From Candidatus Vampirococcus lugosii (GTDB lineage: Bacteria > Patescibacteriota > Gracilibacteria > Absconditabacterales > Absconditicoccaceae), in the NCBI RefSeq assembly GCF_018420025.1, contig NZ_JAEDAM010000048.1:1-12496 (forward strand): a stretch of DNA of 12,496 nucleotides. Direction: 5' to 3'. Shown in pieces: positions 1,657 through 11,159 of this stretch; within the stretch, counting starts at the first letter, position 1, and the number at the start of each line of letters is the position of its first letter. Under the pieces are notes generated by a model. It was not told the origin of the DNA. It worked only from the letters and a program-made list of their open reading frames with translations, and made no database searches. The translations under genes and the position numbers were made by a program.

Positions 1657-2835
1657 ATGTTAAAATATAAAAATTATATAATAAGTGTAATACTCGTAAT
1701 TATATGGAGTTTATTTTTTTCTATATATAAATATTATACTTGGTGATTATTTGATGAAGACTTTTTGACTTTGGAATATATTGCGGCATATTTAAGTTTA
1801 TGATGATTTTTTTCTTTTATTATTTGATGATTTATTTACGAATTGTTGAAAGAGAGAAAATTTCATTTTATAATTTCAACATTATCAATACTAGCGATAA
1901 TTATATTATATTTGCAATATTTATTTCCTGTTTATGATAATATAATTATTATAACATCTATTACAATTTTTATTTGATTTACATATTCTTTTTGGGTTAT
2001 ATTGAGAAGTATTCTTATATCTACTGAAATAAATAAAAATTATGCAAGTGATACTTTATTAAACTGAATAGCAAATATTTCTTTTATTTCATCATTAATT
2101 ATATGAAGTATATTGTGATGATATTTAGTTGAAAAATTAAATGAAAAATGAGTATATATTATTTTGTTGATATTACTAATAAGTGCATTATCATGACTTT
2201 TTTTGAGTAATAATCTTTCAATTTCTGATAATAAAAACTTAAAATCTAGATTTAAAGAATATAAAGAACATTATATTAGAGATTTTTTGTATGTATTCAA
2301 AAAATATTATATTGAAATGATTTTTTTATGAATGATAATAGTTATTGCCACTATAATTTCGCAAAAAGCAATTCAATATATTGTAGAAAATACAGATATG
2401 AAACAAAGTATAGCCACTTTTATACTTTTAGCTAGTGCTTTATGAAGTGTGATTTGAAATGTTTTGTCTATGAAAATAAACAAAAATAAATGGTATTTTT
2501 TTATGATTTGTAGTTTTTTATTTTGAATATCTACGATTATTTTACCATTTTTTTTATTAAATTTTATTATAACTATACTTGTAGCTTTTGTAGCTTGAGT
2601 TTTTTTCTGAATAGTTTTTAATTTACTTGAATCTGATTATTTAAAAAATATAGCAATTGATGATAAAAAATCATATTGATGAACAAGTTTGTGATTGATA
2701 AGTTCATTAGTTATATGAATTATGATGATTTTGATTGATGAAATAGATAAAATAGTATGAATTACTACTACTTACATAATTTTATGAATTATATTATTTA
2801 TCATTTGAATACTAATTTATTTTAGAAAAAAATAA
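1657..2835 (+). CDS. Polytopic integral membrane protein, putative MFS-type lysophospholipid transporter (LplT-like), 392 aa
   Basis: ATG at 1657, TAA at 2833-2835; I read the frame codon by codon and it has many TGA but no TAA or TAG. The protein is hydrophobic throughout, with about 10-12 helix-length segments separated by short K/R/E/D loops. It ends 24 nt before the Aas-like gene, the same partnership as lplT-aas in Proteobacteria. I saw no crisp MFS signature motif, so the coding call is strong and the functional call is moderate. Confidence 0.6.
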
Positions 2836-2859
2836 TTTTTAAATTTAAACTAAATTAAA

Positions 2860-5502
2860 ATGATTAAATTAATTTCAATAATATATTTTTTTATTTTAAG
2901 ATTAAGATATAAATTTGATATATCTTGATTAGAAAAAATAGAAAAAAATAAACAATATATAATTCTTCCAAATCATCAAGCACTTGTTGATCCTCAAATA
3001 GTTGTAAGTCTTGTATGACAAAAAATAAAAGTTAGTCCTTTGATGTCAGAAACTTATTATAATTTACCTATATTAAAATATTTTTTTATATGGATATGAG
3101 CAGTTTCAATTTGAGATATACAGAGGTGAACTTGAAATAAAGAAAGTATAAATAAATCTTTTGATAATATTAAATTAGCTTTAGATGAGTGAAAAAATAT
3201 TTTATTGTATCCATCATGACAGCTTTATAGTCAATGATTTGAATCAATAAAATGAAAAAAAATAGCATATAATTTAACTCAAATATTGCCAGATAATGTT
3301 GAGATTATCTTGATCAAAACTACATGACTTCGATGAAGTATTTTTTCAAAAGCTTGGTCTTGAAAAACTCCAAATTTGATTTTAAATTTAATTAAATCAT
3401 TTTTTATTTTATTGTGAAATATATTTTTTTTGATACCAAAAAGAAAAGTTAAAATTGAAATTGAAAATTATACAAATATATTGAAAAATACAAAAAATAT
3501 AAATGATTACAATCAAAAATTGGAAGAATTTTATAATAAAGATTGAGAAGAAAAAGTAAATTATAAAAAACATTTTTTTTATTTTAATAATACAAAAAAT
3601 AAAGAATTACCATTAAATATAGATTGAGCAATAAATTGTAGTTTGGATAATCAAGATTATGATTTACAAAAAATTGATGAAAAAATATTAAATAAAATAA
3701 TAAAAAAAATAGCTGAAATAAAAGAAATAAAAGAAGATAATATAAATATTAAATCAAGTTTGATAAATGATTTATATTTTGATTCTCTTGATTTAGCTGA
3801 AATTAAATCTTTTGTACAAAATAATTTTAAATTGGCAGACAATCCTTCTATTTTGGATTTGAAAACAGTTTTGAATTTGTATATTATGGCTATTTGAGAA
3901 TCACAAAACAAAGAAGAATTAAAAGATTGCAATTGGATACAGACAAATAATAAAGAAGAAAAATTATTTGATATAATTCAAAATAATTCTAATAAATTAA
4001 AAAACAATGTAAATATATTAAATTTATTTAAAGAAGTTTTTAAAAAAGATAAAAAAGAAAGTTTTGTTTATGATGAAATTTTTTGAATACAATCAAAAAA
4101 AGATTTTTTGATAAAAGTATATTTAATATCATCATATATTAAAAAATTTGATTGAAAATATATTTGATTAATGCTACCTAGTGTATCAAGTGCAAGTTTA
4201 CTTATTATTTCTACAATTTTGGCTTGAAAAGTTCCAGTTATGTTAAATTGGACATTATGAGAATCAGCCCTTTTACATTGTATTAAATTTGCTCAAATAA
4301 ATACAGTATTGACAAGTAAGAAATTTTATGAAAAGATACAAAATGATTGAACTGAAAAAATAAAAGATAAGTATGTTTTTTTGGAAAATTTATTAAAAGA
4401 TATTAAATTAATAAGTAAAATTAAGGCATTATTTAATAGTATGTTTTTCAAAATACCAGAAATTAAATCAGAAGATGAAGCAGTTATGCTTTTTACTTCT
4501 TGAAGTGAAAGTTTACCCAAAGCAGTTGTATTAACTCATAAAAATATAATATCAGATATAAATTGAGCTTTATATCATTTTCCTATTACAAATAAAGATA
4601 AATTAATATGATTTTTGCCACCATTTCATAGTTTTGGATTTAGTGTAAATACTATTATGCCACTTATTTCTTGACTAAAAGTTTTGTATACTCCAGATCC
4701 AAATGATATTAAAACAGTATGAAATTTAATATGACATTGAAAAATAACAGCACTTAGTGCAACCCCTACTTTTTTAAATATGATTTTGAAAGATACTAAT
4801 GAAGAAAAATTAAAAAGCTTGAAATATGCAGTAGTTTGAGCAGAAAAATGTAATGAAAATGTTTTTGAATTATTTGACAAAAAATGTCCAAATTGAAAAA
4901 TTCTTGAATGATATTGAATTACAGAATGTAGTCCAGTGATAAGTATTAATCCACCTATTAAATCAAAAAAATGAAGTGTTTGATTAGCTATTTATTGAGG
5001 TGATGTTAAAATAGTTTGACTTGAAAATAAAAAAATATTATGAAATAATAAAGAATGAATGATTTATTTCAAATGAGATAATGTTTTTGCTTGATATTTG
5101 GATAAAAATTTGGAAAATCCTTTTGAAAATATAGATTGAAAATTATATTACAAAACTTGAGATTTATGATATCTTGATAAAGATTGATATATTTATATAA
5201 CTTGAAGATTAAAAAGATTTATAAAAATAGCATGAGAGATGATATCTTTACCTTTTGTAGAATCAATATTGAATAAAAAATATTGAAATTCAATAGCTAT
5301 AGAAGCTTTGGAAAAAGATTGACAAGCAAAAATCGTTTTATTTAGCACAGAAAATATAAATCTAGAACAAGCTCAAGATTTCTTAAGACAAAATTGAGTA
5401 AGTAATTTAGTAAAATTATCTGAAACAATGATTATTGATGAATTACCTGTACTTTGAACCTGAAAAATAGATTATAAAATTTTGAAAAAGATGATTAAGT
5501 AA
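2860..5502 (+). CDS. aas: Tri-domain Aas-like enzyme: lysophospholipid acyltransferase (PlsC-type), internal acyl-carrier (PP-binding) domain and acyl-AMP ligase/acyl-ACP synthetase, 880 aa
   Basis: ATG at 2860, TAA at 5500-5502; about 50 in-frame TGA and no TAA or TAG. Acyltransferase: NHQALVD, the HX4D motif (2974-2991), and LLYPSGQL, which corresponds to the FPEG block. Carrier domain: LINDLYFDSLDLAEIKSFV, with the DSL phosphopantetheine-site Ser at 3784-3786. Adenylation domain: MLFTSGSESLPKAVVLTHKN (4495-4521), [45 protein letters not shown] and the terminal LGTGKIDYK. Most glycines in these motifs are TGA. Confidence 0.9.
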
Positions 5503-5643: not shown

Positions 5644-7410
5644 ATGAAAAAAATATTAATTACCAGTTTTGTATTTTTGTTTTTAATTTTGTGATTTGTA
5701 GTTAATGCAAATCAATCATTAAAACCGTGATCACAAGATAGAGGATTTGTAGATTGATGGTATTGTTCTACAAAAATAGATGAGAATGTAAATGAAAATA
5801 ATTCTCCATTTGTCCAAAATAGAGATTATAGATGTAGTTTTGGTGCAGGTCCAGAAACATGAAGATGTTTATTTACAGTAGAAGAGTGTTATGATTGTTC
5901 TGCTAGAGCAACTCATAAAGATGATTGATCGGATTATGAAACTAAATGAACTTTGACAGTATTTCAAAGTTGTGTTCATAATAATAGTTTGATAAATGAA
6001 GCTTGACATTATTGAACAAGACCAGCATATCATGGTATGTCAGATTTAAATTATGATCCTTCAGATTTAGGATGTAGTTATGGAACTAATCCACCAGAAA
6101 CAATAAAAGTAGTATCATGAGCTAGTCATTGTGCTGCAACTAATTTAAATAAATATAATGATAATTTATGATATGATGATCCTAACCCTGATAATTGGAA
6201 TTGGGACTGTTGAAATTCAAATGATTCAAGCACATTTACATGGACTGGTTTTTGAGATTTATGAACTAGTTCATATGAATCTACTGATGTTTGTTGAGGT
6301 TTAGAAGAATATCTTGGTAAAACGATTATATGACAACGGGGTTTACCAACTTGATTTGTTTGTCTAGAAGAAAAAATAGTTGATGAAAATGAAAAAAATA
6401 ATGATTATATAAATCTATGAGATTGAAAATATCTAGATAAAAGTTCTGATTATATATGATGATGATATTGTGAAGAGACAAATCTTAAGTCTTTTGATGA
6501 TAACAATGGTGATGGAATTTGAGGAGATGATCATTATTGTACATGAAATTGGGTATATTGGTGAATAGTTAATTCTTCTGATTGTCCAGATTGAACATAT
6601 AAAGATCTTATTTCAGAAAACACAAAATGAGAACTCGTTTGATTTGTTTGTAAAAAGTGAACAAATTCTAATCCACCAGCGAAATGTTGATGAGAAGATG
6701 GGAAAACTTATGCTTTTGATGATACAAGTTGGGGTACAAATGATTTTTGTGAAGAATGAGATGTAGATCCAACTAATCCTAGTTTCCCTGGTGAAGGAGA
6801 GACTAGAAATTGGACTTGTAATACTTCTTCTTGAGATCAAGCAAATTGTAGTGCTAGTAGAGAAACTGAAAATGTTGATCCAATTTGTAATATATATGAC
6901 AATCATCCTAAGAAATCTTGACATTATCTTGTTAATTTACAAGATGCTGGGAATCAATGGTGTATAGAAGAATGATATGATTATTGAAGTGTTTTAATGT
7001 GACATGATTCTTGACAACTGACTGATGAAATGATAAATAATAGTGGTTGAGCTTGGAGATGGAGAACTAATACTAATTCTTGGGATTGACCTAGTTCTGT
7101 TAGTGTAACTTCTTGAGATATAATTAAAAAAGTTGAATGTTGTAACTCAGTAACTAATCCACCAGCGAAATGTTGATGAGAAGATGGGAAAACTTATGCT
7201 TTTGATGATACAAGTTGGGGTACAAATGATTTTTGTGAAGAATGAGATGTAGATCCAACTAATCCTAGTTTCCCTGGTGAAGGAGAGACTAGAAATTGGA
7301 CTTGTAATACTTCTTCTTGAGATCAAGCAAATTGTAGTGCTAGTAGAGAAACTGAAAATGTTCAATGTTGTGAAGCAGGTTGATTTGCACCTTGTACAGT
7401 ATGTGAATAA
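5644..7410 (+). CDS. Secreted cysteine-rich modular protein of unknown function, 588 aa, with a duplicated 69-aa module
   Basis: ATG at 5644, TAA at 7408-7410; frame checked codon by codon. Signal peptide MKKILITSFVFLFLILGFVVNA followed by NQ (an AXA-like VNA site). The mature part has about 31 Cys. It contains repeated modules with the pattern C-G-G-x-D-G ... F-C-E-E-G ... NWTC ... C-S-A. Two copies are identical (PPAKCGGEDGKTYAFDDTSWGTNDFCEEGDVDPTNPSFPGEGETRNWTCNTSSGDQANCSASRETEN), and divergent copies lie between and upstream of them (GGAWRWRT, NWNWDCGNSNDSS). It ends in a Cys-rich tail, QCCEAGGFAPCTVCE, with no membrane anchor. Confidence 0.85.
6668..6876 (+). repeat. Copy 1 of a perfect 209-bp direct repeat inside the Cys-rich protein gene
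   Basis: Base-for-base identical to 7154-7362 by manual comparison. The offset is 486 bp (162 codons), so the copies are in phase. Confidence 0.95.
7154..7362 (+). repeat. Copy 2 of the perfect 209-bp direct repeat
   Basis: Identical to 6668-6876. The supplied antisense ORFs 6613-6924 and 7147-7365 share the same peptide for the same reason. Confidence 0.95.
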
Positions 7411-7443: not shown

Positions 7444-8073
7444 ATGAATAGAATACTATATATTTGATGATTTATTTGATGAGCTTGAATTGTAATAGTA
7501 TTGTTTATATATATATTATCTTGAAATAATTGAAATTTAAATTGAAACATAAATAATTGAAATGAAATTAATTATGTTGATGATCAAGATATAGACAATA
7601 CATCTTTACAAGATGATTGTGTAAATAATGATTATTATGAAATAAACTGAATTAGTATGCAACCTATATTAAAAAATTGAGATAAAGTTTTGATAGCAGA
7701 ATGATATTATCAATGTGGAGGTGATATAAAAAGAAATGATATTGTGATTTATGATGCTGCATCAACAGAATCTATTATAATCAAGCAAGTTAAAGTAATG
7801 CCTAATGATAAAGTAGAATTTATAGAAAATGAGCAATGAGAAATAAATATTATTGTAAATGATCAAGTATTAAAAAATGAAGAAAATAATTCTTATATAA
7901 TAAATGAAAATCAAGAAAGAATGATGAGTTTGTACATTAATAATTGAAAATTACAATCAAATTCTTATTTCATATTTGGACAACAACAAAGATGAGGTAG
8001 TTTTGATTCTAGATCTCTGGGTGCAGTAAGTTTATCAGGTATGAAATGAAAACTTATACAAAAAAATGAATAA
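7444..8073 (+). CDS. lepB: Signal peptidase I (S26 family), 209 aa
   Basis: ATG at 7444, TAA at 8071-8073, 33 nt after the Cys-rich protein gene. N-terminal TM anchor (ILYIGGFIGGAGIVIVLFIYIL). GISMQPILKNGDKVLI is the G-SM-P-L..GD box, with the nucleophile Ser at 7654-7656. IIIKQVKVMPNDKV is the KR-V..PGD box that carries the general-base Lys. YFIFGQQQRGGSFDSRSLGAVSLSGMKGKL is the GDNR..S.DSR..G box. 16 of the 22 Gly codons are TGA, including a G/N-rich linker at 7522-7563. Confidence 0.85.
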
Positions 8074-8089
8074 AATTAATTTTATTCTA

Positions 8090-8130
8090 AAAAAAAAGAT
8101 ATACAGTAATTTACTGTATATCTTTTTTTT
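8090..8130. terminator. Bidirectional intrinsic terminator candidate (41-nt perfect palindrome)
   Basis: The sequence AAAAAAAAGATATACAGTAATTTACTGTATATCTTTTTTTT is centred on 8110. The stem is about 8097-8107 paired with 8113-8123, flanked by an A-run on the left and a T-run on the right, so each strand reads hairpin then U-tract. It lies between the convergent stops at 8073 (+) and 8147 (-). The stem is AT-rich, with only 3 G-C pairs. Confidence 0.6.
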
Positions 8131-8146
8131 AAATATTATTTTATAA

Positions 8147-8665
8147 CTATTTTTCCAAAAAATTTTTAATTTCTGGAAGTATATCAGATATTTTATATTT
8201 AAGACAATATCAATCTACACAATTATCTTGTGCTAATTTTTCCAAAAGATTTAATATTAAGTATATTTTTACTTTTGTTAATCAAAATTCCAAAAAAAAG
8301 TTATTAATAATTCTATCAACAAGAATTTTACCTGATAAAATTGTAGAATTAATATCTCTATCTATACAATAACCTTTTTGGAAAGCTATAGCAAAAAGAT
8401 TTTTATTATCTGAAGGATAAACTAAATACCAATTAAGAAATTTTTCCAAATCTTTTTCTTTAACTGCATTTTCCAATGATTTAATATATTTATTCATAGA
8501 ATATTTAATAGTTTGTAAGAATAAGTCTTTTTTATCTATAAAATAATAATATAAACTTGGTTTTTGAATATTTAGAGAATTAGCAATATTATCAAGTTTT
8601 ACATCAGTATATCTTTTTGCAAAAAAATGTTCTTCTGCAACTTTAAATATTTTTTCTTTTTCCAT
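8147..8665 (-). CDS. TetR/AcrR-family transcriptional regulator, 172 aa
   Basis: Start ATG (complement) at 8663-8665. The supplied 127-aa ORF ends at a TGA (8282-8284) but reads on as Gly to a TAG at 8147-8149. The N-terminal HTH is FAKRYTDVKLDNIANSLNIQKPSLYYYFIDKKDLF, the typical TetR_N pattern (T...IA...G.s...lY.hF..Ke.L). Confidence 0.85.
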
Positions 8666-8688
8666 GATTTTATTAAATAAATATAAAA

Positions 8689-9543
8689 TTATATTTTAAT
8701 TTTGGATAAAGCTCATTTTATAGTATTAACTATATCTGAATCAATAACAAATTTACTATTATCTTTCAAAGAATTTTGTGCAACTCTTAATTGTTCTTTC
8801 AATATAGCATTATCTTTAAAATAAGCAATTGCTGCACTTGCTTCATATTCTATTTCTTTTGCCCTAGCTTGTGCAATTCTTTCTATAGCTTCAGCTTGTC
8901 ATTGAGCTTCCAAAATTTGTTTTTCTTTATATCATTGTGCCTCTATAATATAAGATTGTTTTTTTCATTCAGCAGTAAGTACATATGCTCTTTTTTCTTG
9001 TTCTGCAATTTTTTGTTTACTCATGGCATCTACTAAATCTTTTGGTGGATCAATTTTTTGTATTTCAACTTTATTTATTCTAATTCACCATTTATCTGTT
9101 TCTTTTGCAAGATTTGTTTGAACATAAGTATTTATTTTTTGTCTATCTCATAAAATATCATCTAATGTCATAGTACCAATAATTCATCTTAATGTTGTAA
9201 CTCATAAGCTACTTACTGCCAAAATTGGATCTTGAATTTCATAAGTAGAACTTTTTGCATCATAAATTTGTGTAAATATAACTGAATCAACTAAAACGGC
9301 TGCATTATCAGATGTAATCATATTTTGAGCTGGAGTATTTATAACTCTTTCTCTCATATCTACTTTTTTTACAGATTCTATAAATGGAATGATAATATGC
9401 CAACCTGCTTGCAAAGTAGAATGATATTTGGAAAGTCTTTCTTTAACTCATTTTTCAAAAGGAGATACTTTTACAAGTGTAAAAAATATAATTATAAATC
9501 AAAGAAATATTAATAATAAGGATACAACAAACAGTCAATTCAT
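8689..9543 (-). CDS. SPFH/band-7 (stomatin/prohibitin-like, QmcA-type) membrane protein, 284 aa
   Basis: ATG (complement) at 9541-9543, TAA at 8689-8691. N-terminal TM (LFVVSLLLIFLGFIIIFF). It continues with EKGVKERLSKYHSTLQAGWHIIIPFIESV..VDMRE...PAQNMITSDNAAVLVDSVIF, then TLRGIIGTMTLDDILGDR and DKWGIRINKVEIQKIDPP, and ends in a coiled AEG/AQG-repeat tail. In the conserved WGI motif Trp is TGG (9088-9090) and the adjacent Gly is TGA (9085-9087). Confidence 0.9.
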
Positions 9544-9548
9544 ATCTT

Positions 9549-9698
9549 TTAATTAAGATTATAAATAATTAATTTAATTATAAACAAAAATACAATTAAT
9601 TCAATAAGAATTAATTTAAGAAAAGTTAAATTTATAAAAAAACAAAAAATTGATAGCAAAAATAAAATAATTACATATAAAGAATAAAATATTTTCAT
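9549..9698 (-). CDS. Small hydrophobic protein, 49 aa (hypothetical, one or two TM segments)
   Basis: ATG (complement) at 9696-9698, TAA at 9549-9551. Sequence: MKIFYSLYVIILFLLSIFCFFINLTFLKLILIELIVFLFIIKLIIYNLN. It sits between the LCP stop (3 nt upstream) and the SPFH start (5 nt downstream) on the same strand. A 50-codon open frame is uncommon in DNA this rich in TAA and TAG. There is no homology evidence, and low-complexity AT-rich sequence could produce it by chance. Confidence 0.35.
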   Translation of the reverse strand: MKIFYSLYVIILFLLSIFCFFINLTFLKLILIELIVFLFIIKLIIYNLN

Positions 9699-9701
9699 AT
9701 T

Positions 9702-11033
9702 TTAATTTTCAATAAATTTATTTCAAAGATATATTTCCATATGAGCATCTAACTCATTTGATTGTAGTACCTCATCAATATCAATAAAAATTCTCAATAA
9801 AGAAATTGTAGATTTATAAGAATTTAAATCATCTACATAAACTATATTTTTTTCATAATATTCATCAGAATTTCAAGTATCTATTACATCAAATCAGTAT
9901 TGTTTCAATTCAATAGCCATATTATTTGCTATAGAAATTAATCTTCAATGTTTAGATCTAATAGTTTTTGGATCTACTGCATTAACAACTTTAATACTAG
10001 GTTTTTCAAGTAAATATTCTTGATTATTTAAGAAAAAAAATGCAAAATCCTGAATATTTTTATAGTTGGAAAAATCAGATACATTAGCTCATTGTTGTAA
10101 AAGAACTGAAGCTCAACCAAACAAACTTCTCTGAGGATAATATAAAAAACATCAAATATCAGTTGTTTCAAAATAACTTTTATCACAATCTGCTGTAAGT
10201 CAAGCACTATTGTATATATCTAATTCTTTAACATAAGAAATAAGAGATATTATTTGTCTAAAACTTATATTAGTTTCCAACATAGAATTAAACTCTCAAT
10301 AAAGTTTTTGCAAATTAGGAATATTTACCAAATTATTTACAGATACTATTTGAGAAATAATTGATTTAATAAGTAATTGTTGTCTTATAGATCTAGAAAA
10401 ATCGGATGTAGTTTGTCTACTTCTAGCATATTTTAATGCAGTTTCTCAATCAAATTTTTGAATTCATTCTTCAACAATAAAAGTTTGATATCATCAATTA
10501 GCAGTAGGATATTTATGATCTACAATTTTTTCTGGTACATCAACTTCTACTCATCATAATGAATCTACTAATTTAATAAATCAATCAAAATCTATCAAAG
10601 CATAATAATCTATATTAATTCAAGTAATTTCATTAATAGTAGATATTAATGCATTTAATCATTCTGATACTTCTCAAGTTCTGTTATATATAGTTGGTAA
10701 TAATCAATTTATTTTTCAATTATAAGATACATCAGGATTACTAATATATAAATCTCTTGGAATAGATAAAAAACTTACAGATCATAAATCTACATCATAA
10801 GATGCAACTATAATACTATCTGCTAAATATCAATGATCATATCATAATATCAATGCATTAATTTGTCAAAACTCATCTACATTCAAATCTTCTCATACCG
10901 TAGATTCAGTAATAGACATTATCATATTTGATAAACCTGACATAAAATTTTGTCAAAAAGAGATAGCATAATTTGCAAAATAAAAAATCAGAAACAAAGA
11001 AAAAGATATAAATGAAAGTTTTATAAAAAACAT
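9702..11033 (-). CDS. LCP (LytR-CpsA-Psr) family cell-envelope glycopolymer transferase with a LytR_C-like C-terminal domain, 443 aa
   Basis: TAA at 9702-9704. ATG (complement) at 11031-11033 gives a TM anchor, MFFIKLSFISFSLFLIFYFANYAISF. LCP core: INALILGYDH..ADSIIVASYD...VSFLSIPRDLYI...GKINGLL...ITGINIDYYALIDFDGFIKLVDSLGGVEVDVPE...FDGETALKYARSRQTTSDFSRSIRQQLLIKSII. The GG of LGGVEV is TGA-TGA. C-terminal domain: KPSIKVVNAVD...IANNMAIELKQYGFDVID. The frame stays open upstream to an in-frame GTG at 11115-11117, which would add a basic leader (AFKKKRLG...), so the true start may be 84 nt further upstream. Confidence 0.88.
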
Positions 11034-11129
11034 AAAACTAATAAAAGAATCTTTAGTCTTGGAAAAAATATAAATTAAATTTCAATATGTTCATAACCTT
11101 TTTTTCTTAAAAGCCACTTTAATTAATTT

Positions 11130-11159
11130 ATTATAAATTTAAAATATGTAGTAATTGAA
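11130..11159 (-). promoter_or_regulatory. Candidate promoter for the minus-strand LCP/SPFH/TetR gene string (TTCAAT, 18 nt spacer, TATAAT)
   Basis: On the minus strand, TTCAAT lies at 11154-11159 and a perfect TATAAT at 11130-11135, inside the 247-nt gap upstream of the LCP gene. This is a motif match only and is easily produced by chance at this base composition. Confidence 0.22.

Follow-up and report, generated by a model that had tools for sequence, protein, structure and literature searches.

The gene pair g3-g4 of Candidatus Vampirococcus lugosii probably encodes a variant of the LplT/Aas system for the re-acylation of lysophospholipids, in which the acyl carrier protein (ACP) is provided in cis as a part of the enzyme g4 and is served by a dedicated phosphopantetheinyl transferase (PPTase). 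Both genes lie on a complete contig of 12,496 nt with a G+C content of about 20%, which as a whole is the window analyzed here. It is close to certain that g4 consists of an acyltransferase, a carrier and an acyl-ACP synthetase in this order, and the succession of acyltransferase, carrier and adenylation domain that the original prediction had claimed for this DNA is thus real. The identities of the domains, the conservation of their motifs, the association of three genes in relatives and the presence of a PPTase in the Vampirococcus genome are the observations on which this reading builds.

In such a system, a PPTase of the Sfp/AcpT type would use coenzyme A (CoA) to convert Ser309 of g4 to the holo form, and the Aas-type adenylation domain would activate a free fatty acid to the acyl-AMP and load it onto the phosphopantetheine arm in cis. 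The carrier would then hand the acyl thioester over to the N-terminal HX4D acyltransferase, which, on the cytoplasmic side of the membrane, would acylate a lysolipid that g3 would supply as a flippase or importer. The published genome analysis describes the lipid biosynthesis genes of Vampirococcus as almost completely absent and the organism as “devoid of phospholipid synthesis”, just as the original prediction had assumed, and as lipid source it proposes no more than the secreted phospholipase Vamp_34_196, with g3 and g4 unmentioned (PMC8080830). Annotation terms for ACP, PPTase or acyltransferase do not occur in its supplements (PMC8080830). In an organism that lacks lipid synthesis and secretes a phospholipase, g3 and g4 could plausibly serve to make diacyl lipids from lysolipids and fatty acids that stem from the prey. 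What we infer here is the acceptor lipid, what g3 transports and which physiological role the pair has.

The reading of these genes depends on the genetic code. Calling of open reading frames (ORFs) with table 11 gives nearly no ORFs in the window, and with TGA as sense codon ten long genes fill it. TGA codons coincide with conserved glycines in adenylation and ITPase motifs, and in comparison with 64 standard-code homologues, Gly is the majority residue in 38 of the 53 TGA columns of g4 (Gly 68% overall, Trp negligible). As this Gly majority is accompanied by only two GGN codons in the whole of g4, code 25 (TGA=Gly) and not code 4 is supported. Once TGA is read as Gly, all positions that had been given earlier for g3, g4, their spacer, the HX4D motif, the Ser codon and the adenylation core motif are correct. 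On the forward strand, g3 encodes a transporter of 392 aa (1657..2835) that belongs to the major facilitator superfamily (MFS), and after a spacer of 24 nt (2836..2859, read directly from the sequence) it is followed by g4, which encodes the tri-domain protein of 880 aa (2860..5502; Pfam, NCBIfam and AlphaFold). The g4 product is 100% identical to the NCBI entry “AMP-binding protein [Candidatus Vampirococcus lugosii]” (P0001). The two genes are probably co-transcribed; a scan found no terminator-like sites between 900 and 5800, and a promoter scan was uninformative, with 60 promoter-like sites against 55 expected.

For comparisons of g4, we used the best 120 hits, which share 40-94% identity with it. 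In 36 of these 120 database homologues, Trp makes up at least 3% of the residues and is found where the others have Gly, and these entries appear to have been translated with code 4 (TGA=Trp) instead of code 25.

The AlphaFold model of g4, which was built with the alignment of the 120 homologues, has a mean predicted local distance difference test score (pLDDT) of 88.4 and a predicted template modelling score (pTM) of 0.69. An acyltransferase domain of the LPLAT/PlsC type (aa 1-255, 2860..3624; PF01553, PRK08633) is followed by the ACP-like carrier domain (aa 262-352, 3643..3915; family profile, PF00550) and by an acyl-ACP synthetase with the ANL adenylation fold (aa 379-880, 3994..5499; BLASTP, NCBIfam and Foldseek). 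All catalytic motifs of g4 are intact. Aas of E. coli likewise carries an HX4D acyltransferase and a C-terminal synthetase on one chain and has an MFS gene adjacent, and its chemistry, which leads from fatty acid via acyl-AMP and acyl-S-pantetheine to the acylated lysolipid, is the one proposed here for g4. In contrast to g4, it lacks a carrier domain and works with free holo-ACP, whereas g4 has some 180 additional residues between the halves. This excess, which the original prediction had put at roughly 85 residues, is composed of a C-terminal extension of the acyltransferase (aa ~165-255) and the carrier domain of about 90 residues. A Foldseek search found no solved three-domain relative of g4, and the structural matches were all ANL enzymes. 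Those with low root-mean-square deviation (rmsd) represent thioester-forming conformations, including the AasS-ACP complex 8i8d (rmsd 4.4 Å).

In the synthetase half, PF00501 matches aa 432-747 with 3.5e-55, and in BLASTP the C-terminal half is 33% identical to residues 209-711 of E. coli Aas (E 1e-85). Its top four NCBIfam matches are PRK08633 (4.5e-135), PRK06814, the AasC model PRK06334 (2.8e-106) and the Aas model PRK08043. The motifs A3, A5, A7, A8 and A10 are present (TSGSESLPK at 546, YGITE at 685, YKTGD at 764, one at 782 and PVLGTGKID at 863). Within the core motif A3 (4495..4521), where Gly is encoded by TGA, T546, S547, E550, P553 and K554 are invariant in the 120 homologues. AasS of Vibrio harveyi and AasC of Chlamydia trachomatis (PRK06334) likewise use adenylation to charge the thiol of a phosphopantetheine, but they consist of a single domain, act on free ACP for general phospholipid synthesis and possess neither an acyltransferase nor a carrier in cis.

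In the acyltransferase half, PF01553 matches aa 19-123 (3.5e-8, 33.8 bits, cutoff 23), and conservation marks the catalytic HX4D motif HQALVD (H39-D44, 2974..2991), of which H39 and D44, together with N38 and P45, reach a conservation of at least 90% among the 120 homologues and are invariant in a set of 15 acyltransferase sequences of the family. BLASTP gave no alignment of this half with E. coli Aas. The best NCBIfam match is the segment of PRK08633 at model positions 414-562, with 4.9e-13 for Vampirococcus and 4e-21 for the best member, and this holds for all 15 family members; the model of the E. coli-type Aas, PRK08043, is matched by 12 of them. The PlsC-type model TIGR00530 is matched by all 15 as well, with 1.9e-5 for Vampirococcus and 3.2e-9 for the best members, and the nearest solved structure is PlsC of Thermotoga (5kym, E 0.009). 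Judged by these profile comparisons, the acyltransferase resembles the Aas-type segments more closely than it does other subfamilies of LPLAT. A hydrophobic helix at aa 173-192 (3376..3435) is a candidate membrane-association element: the AlphaFold model places a helix at 173-190, the Kyte-Doolittle hydropathy peaks with 2.14 at 174-192, and the consensus ANLxFFxPKRKV is conserved there.

Both halves of g4 thus find their best NCBIfam matches in the fused LplT-Aas proteins (PRK08633/PRK06814), which have about 1140 residues and combine MFS, acyltransferase and synthetase. These share with the Vampirococcus pair the functional link of an MFS protein to an Aas-type enzyme, but the arrangement differs: in the fused proteins the MFS part is fused and there is no carrier (model positions 562-610 correspond to aa 165-379 of g4), whereas in Vampirococcus the MFS protein is separate and the ACP is fused.

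The carrier domain is the part of g4 that single-sequence searches detect least readily. Of the three Pfam families that the original prediction had asked to be confirmed, PF01553 and PF00501 are found in g4, but PF00550 is not reported on the full-length protein and lies below threshold on the isolated segment of g4; the carrier becomes significant with a family profile. When the isolated segment was searched against the PDB, it gave 58 weak matches, all of which are carrier proteins and almost all ACPs, with the DSL motif aligned where alignments were shown. A profile of 31 segment sequences matched 112 PDB chains with E<1e-3 (best 1.8e-14); the best 60 of these 112 belong without exception to carrier proteins, with ACPs accounting for nearly all, and the two alignments shown have DSL in register. 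PF00550 is also matched individually by 23 of the 31 members (E<=0.01, best 8.3e-12). The predicted 4'-phosphopantetheine site is Ser309 (codon TCT, 3784..3786, forward strand) within DSLD (aa 308-311). D308 and S309 are invariant in the 120 homologues, and the surrounding region is variable. In the AlphaFold prediction, helices are formed by residues 274-288, 309-322 and 337-344, with Ser309 at the N-terminus of the second of these; the pLDDT is about 82-92 in most blocks of the domain and 68 in the block of aa 301-310 that holds Ser309. The “textbook” carrier serine of the original prediction has thus held up, as the Asp308-Ser309 pair is invariant and aligns with the DSL serine of solved ACPs. 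We regard the carrier domain as established at the level of the family and as sub-threshold in this particular copy. Translation with TGA=Trp corrupts glycine motifs and probably adds to missed domain calls, and the practical lesson is that standard annotation misses the carrier domain in such AT-rich recoded genomes.

A carrier domain needs a PPTase, and relatives of g4 are encoded together with one. We collected their loci by a scan of GTDB genomes with a PPTase alignment and by local tblastn searches with code 25. In six relatives (L002, L005, L006, L009, L010 and L013), a PF01648 PPTase is adjacent to the g4-like gene or within 2.5 kb of it. In L002, a metagenome-assembled genome (MAG) of the Altimarinota, a g4 homologue with 63% identity is followed by a PPTase of the Sfp/AcpT type (29.9 bits, PF01648 cutoff 25) and then by a g3 orthologue. 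This order g4-PPTase-MFS is also found in L005 and L006, with a gap of 2.4 kb between g4 and PPTase in the latter, and the order PPTase-MFS-g4 is found in L009, L010 and L013. L007 has PPTase and MFS at a contig end, and L008 has PPTase, ion exchanger and MFS genes and lacks a g4 gene in the vicinity. Altogether, the cluster of PPTase, MFS protein and acyltransferase-ACP-synthetase enzyme is conserved in eight or more loci from Patescibacteria, Gracilibacteria and relatives. In three Gracilibacteria loci (L009, 11759-17862; L013, 12661-18868; L010, 11701-14380), the enzyme is split into an acyltransferase-ACP gene of 376-381 aa and a synthetase gene of 506-521 aa, and the carrier stays with the acyltransferase and not with the ligase. 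Between the two parts, L009 and L013 encode a beta-propeller protein of family PF09826 (~757-775 aa) and two small membrane proteins without family assignment. Directly 3' of the synthetase gene in L009 (17863-19969) follow a patatin-like phospholipase (PF01734, 5.4e-32) and a C92 amidase of the permuted papain-like YaeF/YiiX type (9e-19), which points to a lipid-processing cluster of larger extent.

The cluster of Vampirococcus and of its 94%-identical relative L027 consists of SLT transglycosylase, Ham1 ITPase, MFS and g4 and contains no PPTase. L009, L010 and L013 have the PPTase directly upstream of the MFS gene, and in Vampirococcus and L027 Ham1/ITPase takes this position. An exhaustive search with a PPTase-family profile (41 representative clusters with E<1e-30), followed by a cluster look-up, located the PPTase of Vampirococcus on a separate contig of 26,684 nt: WP_213348251.1 (P0280), annotated as “4'-phosphopantetheinyl transferase superfamily protein”, has 196 residues, is 36% identical to the L002 PPTase (E 3e-35) and matches PF01648 with 36.6 bits. 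In the close relative L026, the PPTase gene follows dnaE and a photolyase gene. The phosphopantetheinyl transferase for which the original prediction had recommended a genome survey is therefore present, but the term “self-contained” was overstated, as the carrier depends on a PPTase that is encoded on another contig in Vampirococcus and on CoA.

The membrane protein encoded 24 nt upstream of g4 is a true MFS protein, as had been assumed: g3 matches MFS_1 with 4.7e-10 (39.4 bits, cutoff 33.4), and its hydropathy profile shows a central loop (aa 184-212) among about 11-12 hydrophobic segments. Its orthologues, which are 37-49% identical, adjoin PPTase and/or g4-like genes in L002, L005-L010 and L013, and the linkage of g3-like and g4-like genes is kept in L002, L005, L006, L009, L010, L013 and L027, which bears out the idea of the transporter as a conserved partner of the Aas-like gene. 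NCBIfam, BLASTP, hhalign and PDB profile tests did not show membership of g3 in the LplT family, and the label “LplT-like” of the original prediction could not be kept, since there is no match to an LplT model and the hhalign probability with E. coli LplT is 1.9%. Beyond the MFS fold, likeness to the E. coli transporter is undetectable. The gene g3 may encode a very diverged LplT or a replacement of LplT, and it is the genomic context that would make the two proteins functionally analogous.

The predicted tri-domain architecture is not specific to the candidate phyla radiation (CPR). A neighbour-joining tree of the 120 best hits with E. coli Aas as root unites the recoded sequences, roughly 48 in number, in a single clade, and the remaining ~72 homologues are standard-code sequences, of which the named ones, among them Bacteroidota and Bacteroidales MAGs, are all from Bacteroidota and most have PF00550 precomputed. 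Full-length Bacteroidota homologues with 40-44% identity to g4 are common and include isolates, such as Mangrovibacterium lignilyticum (P0116) and Breznakibacter xylanolyticus (P0107), and like g4 they have PF01553, PF00550 and PF00501 in this order over the full length. They are annotated as “AMP-binding protein” or “acyl-[ACP]--phospholipid O-acyltransferase”, and the literature searched contained no experimental characterization of them. They differ from g4 in using the standard code, in an assumed fatty-acid synthesis of type II (FAS-II) with free ACP, and in a partner MFS protein that is recognizably of the LplT family (L025, L023). In L025, an uncultured metagenomic homologue, an MFS gene of 398 aa shares 4 nt with the tri-domain gene in an overlap, and its product matches PRK08633 with 4e-59, NF008397 with 4e-23 and E. 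coli LplT with 2e-15; in L023, an LplT-type MFS gene is found two genes from the tri-domain gene. By these matches, the Bacteroidota partner is a true LplT-family protein. The arrangement is not uniform, as Mangrovibacterium has an unrelated, divergently transcribed ATG22-like MFS gene and L024 has no MFS gene nearby, and a PPTase was not seen in the Bacteroidota flanks examined. Horizontal transfer from Bacteroidota was considered with the neighbour-joining tree, in which a sample of 120 hits gives no direction. As the same architecture is common in Bacteroidota, the fused ACP is apparently no adaptation to the loss of fatty-acid synthesis, and this part of the original prediction is weakened further by the split genes of the Gracilibacteria.

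A number of observations weigh against the interpretation of g3-g4 as a re-acylation system of the LplT/Aas kind. With respect to the transporter, the LplT model NF008397 is matched neither by g3 (E<=0.1) nor by its L002 orthologue (E<=1), and both also fail to match the MFS section in the models of fused LplT-Aas proteins. As controls, E. coli LplT matches the LplT model and the MFS part of the fused models with 6e-174 and 4e-40, and the Bacteroidota partner proteins match with 4e-23 and 1e-17. BLASTP aligns g3 with E. coli LplT in one helix only (E 0.008), and a profile of seven g3 sequences gave the above-mentioned low hhalign probability. Against a profile of three LplT-type sequences, the g3 family reached at best 22.9% probability (E 9e-4, 301 collinear columns), with 0.06% (E 0.78) for an unrelated MFS control. 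In the PDB, the g3 profile found MCT2 only (5e-4), and no solved LplT surfaced by sequence.

With respect to the enzyme, the scores of g4 with the curated equivalog models are far below the cutoffs (PRK08633, 451.9 versus 1221; PRK06814, 376.7 versus 1349; PRK08043, 303.4 versus 886), and for this reason g4 is best classified as an Aas relative of different architecture and not as an equivalog. It also departs from the definition of Aas as a two-domain enzyme that uses free holo-ACP, since the carrier is inserted between the halves. Motif III of the acyltransferase reads YPSGQ, where the usual form is FPEG. The isolated Vampirococcus carrier segment reaches 17.8-18.4 bits, while the cutoff of PF00550 is 20.8. 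The PPTase of Vampirococcus is retained but unlinked, and the carrier would in addition need a supply of CoA in this organism. Bacteroidota, which presumably have free ACP, carry the same fusion, and this leaves the benefit of a carrier in cis unexplained. One homologue, P0041 of the Altimarinota locus L004 (45% identical to g4), has genes of other kinds next to it at 8704-14625, which are described below.

What alternatives exist for lysophospholipid re-acylation? The enzyme could use another acceptor. Candidates are glycerol-3-phosphate or lysophosphatidic acid, from which a PlsC-like salvage would yield phosphatidic acid, as well as lyso-aminolipids, glycolipids and lipoproteins, and g3 would then carry the respective substrate or product. 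Such a role agrees with the match of all 15 acyltransferases to TIGR00530, with PlsC as the closest structure, with the deviating motif III and with a g3 that is not detectably LplT, and Bacteroidota make many aminolipids. We nevertheless consider it unlikely, as the Aas-type segment clearly outscores the PlsC models both in Vampirococcus and in the best members of the family, as the partner MFS of Bacteroidota belongs to the LplT family, and as a phospholipase is encoded in the L009 cluster.

A different objection concerns the carrier. In principle, g4 could be an ordinary two-domain Aas that works with free ACP, as E. coli Aas does, and its central segment would then be a linker or a decayed carrier. 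The sub-threshold score of the segment is compatible with this idea, as is the disappearance of the PPTase from the Vampirococcus cluster, where the Ham1 ITPase occupies its slot. A vestigial carrier would, however, hardly retain an invariant D308/S309 pair across 120 homologues in an otherwise variable region, the fold is predicted with confidence and with Ser309 at the N-terminus of helix II, and a PPTase of the cluster family is kept in a strongly reduced genome. Given the reported absence of lipid synthesis, free AcpP is itself unlikely in Vampirococcus, although acpP was not searched for. Taken together, we regard a vestigial carrier as very improbable.

In the vicinity of the L004 homologue noted above, the downstream genes encode an AurF-like protein (PF11583), a KASIII-like protein (ACP_syn_III), a second AMP-binding protein and an NAD-dependent reductase/epimerase, which resembles a specialized lipid or polyketide-type cluster and hints at other roles for some members. 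For g3-g4, a specialized-metabolite module, in which adenylation domain, carrier, acyltransferase and PPTase load a fatty acid and the MFS protein exports the acylated product, would be in line with this locus and with the combination of Sfp-type PPTase, adenylation-carrier pair and MFS that is typical of biosynthetic clusters, but we give it hardly any credence, because both catalytic domains are of the Aas type and not of the nonribosomal peptide synthetase or polyketide synthase type, condensation, ketosynthase and thioesterase domains are absent from the CPR clusters examined, the Bacteroidota partner is an LplT-family importer or flippase, and the metabolism of Vampirococcus is minimal.

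The re-acylation reading with an ACP in cis also has to be seen against what is known of Aas and of CPR lipids. A study of LplT/Aas from 2024 describes Aas as a two-domain enzyme that uses free holo-ACP, reports that the LplT-Aas complex forms via the transferase domain, and calls the LplT-Aas fusions uncharacterized (PMC11416262). In E. coli, three loops close to the transferase site make up the interface. In the literature that we searched, which was not exhaustive, there was no description of the acyltransferase-ACP-synthetase form or of such a module in CPR, in agreement with the assumption that the fused-ACP architecture is uncharacterized. Probst et al. 2020 found lysolipids to be enriched in CPR fractions and identified no ACP-producing or ACP-requiring enzymes in the CPR genomes studied (PMC7242380).

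The other genes of the window are arranged in two convergent blocks, with g1-g6 on the forward and g7-g10 on the reverse strand. The cumulative GC skew has its maximum near 8000 and its sign flips exactly at the switch of gene orientation (~8000-8150), i.e. the skew follows the coding strand. [quoted passage not shown] Downstream of g4, g5 (5644-7410, forward strand) encodes a Cys- and Gly-rich protein of 588 aa that has at its N-terminus a hydrophobic segment resembling a signal peptide and matches no Pfam family. Within g5, a perfect direct repeat of 209 nt (6668-6876 and 7154-7362, 100% identity, 486-nt spacing) duplicates a segment of ~69 aa (NPPAKCGGEDGKTYAFDD...SASRETENV), and the G+C content of the repeat region is 0.30, compared with ~0.20 elsewhere in the window. 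The repeat may have arisen by a recent duplication within the gene, or it may be an artefact of the assembly. On the reverse strand (8147-11138), g7 encodes a TetR-family regulator, g8 an SPFH/Band-7 membrane protein (3e-38) and g9 a LytR-CpsA-Psr envelope transferase (5.9e-34); these are envelope-related neighbours.

How CPR bacteria that make neither fatty acids nor phospholipids acquire and assemble the lipids of their membranes is still debated as an open question in the field, and the g3-g4 locus with its PPTase is a concrete, clonable candidate for the missing step of lipid assembly. It is possible, albeit in our view rather doubtful, that in those CPR lineages that use code 25, namely Absconditabacteria and Gracilibacteria, the combination of PPTase, divergent MFS protein and acyltransferase-ACP-synthetase enzyme is the main route of membrane growth, in which secreted phospholipases would cut the phospholipids of prey or host and the lysolipids would be flipped inward and re-acylated, with no need for FAS-II, a Pls pathway or free ACP. 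If true, this would account for the way in which CPR bacteria build their membranes as well as for the lysolipid-rich CPR fractions. As the cluster is concrete, clonable and conserved across loci, the hypothesis is directly testable. The Aas form with its ACP in cis, which is common in Bacteroidota and seemingly unstudied, may be of interest beyond the CPR, and the tri-domain enzyme would be a convenient single-polypeptide system for the shuttling of a carrier between an adenylation site and an acyltransferase site.

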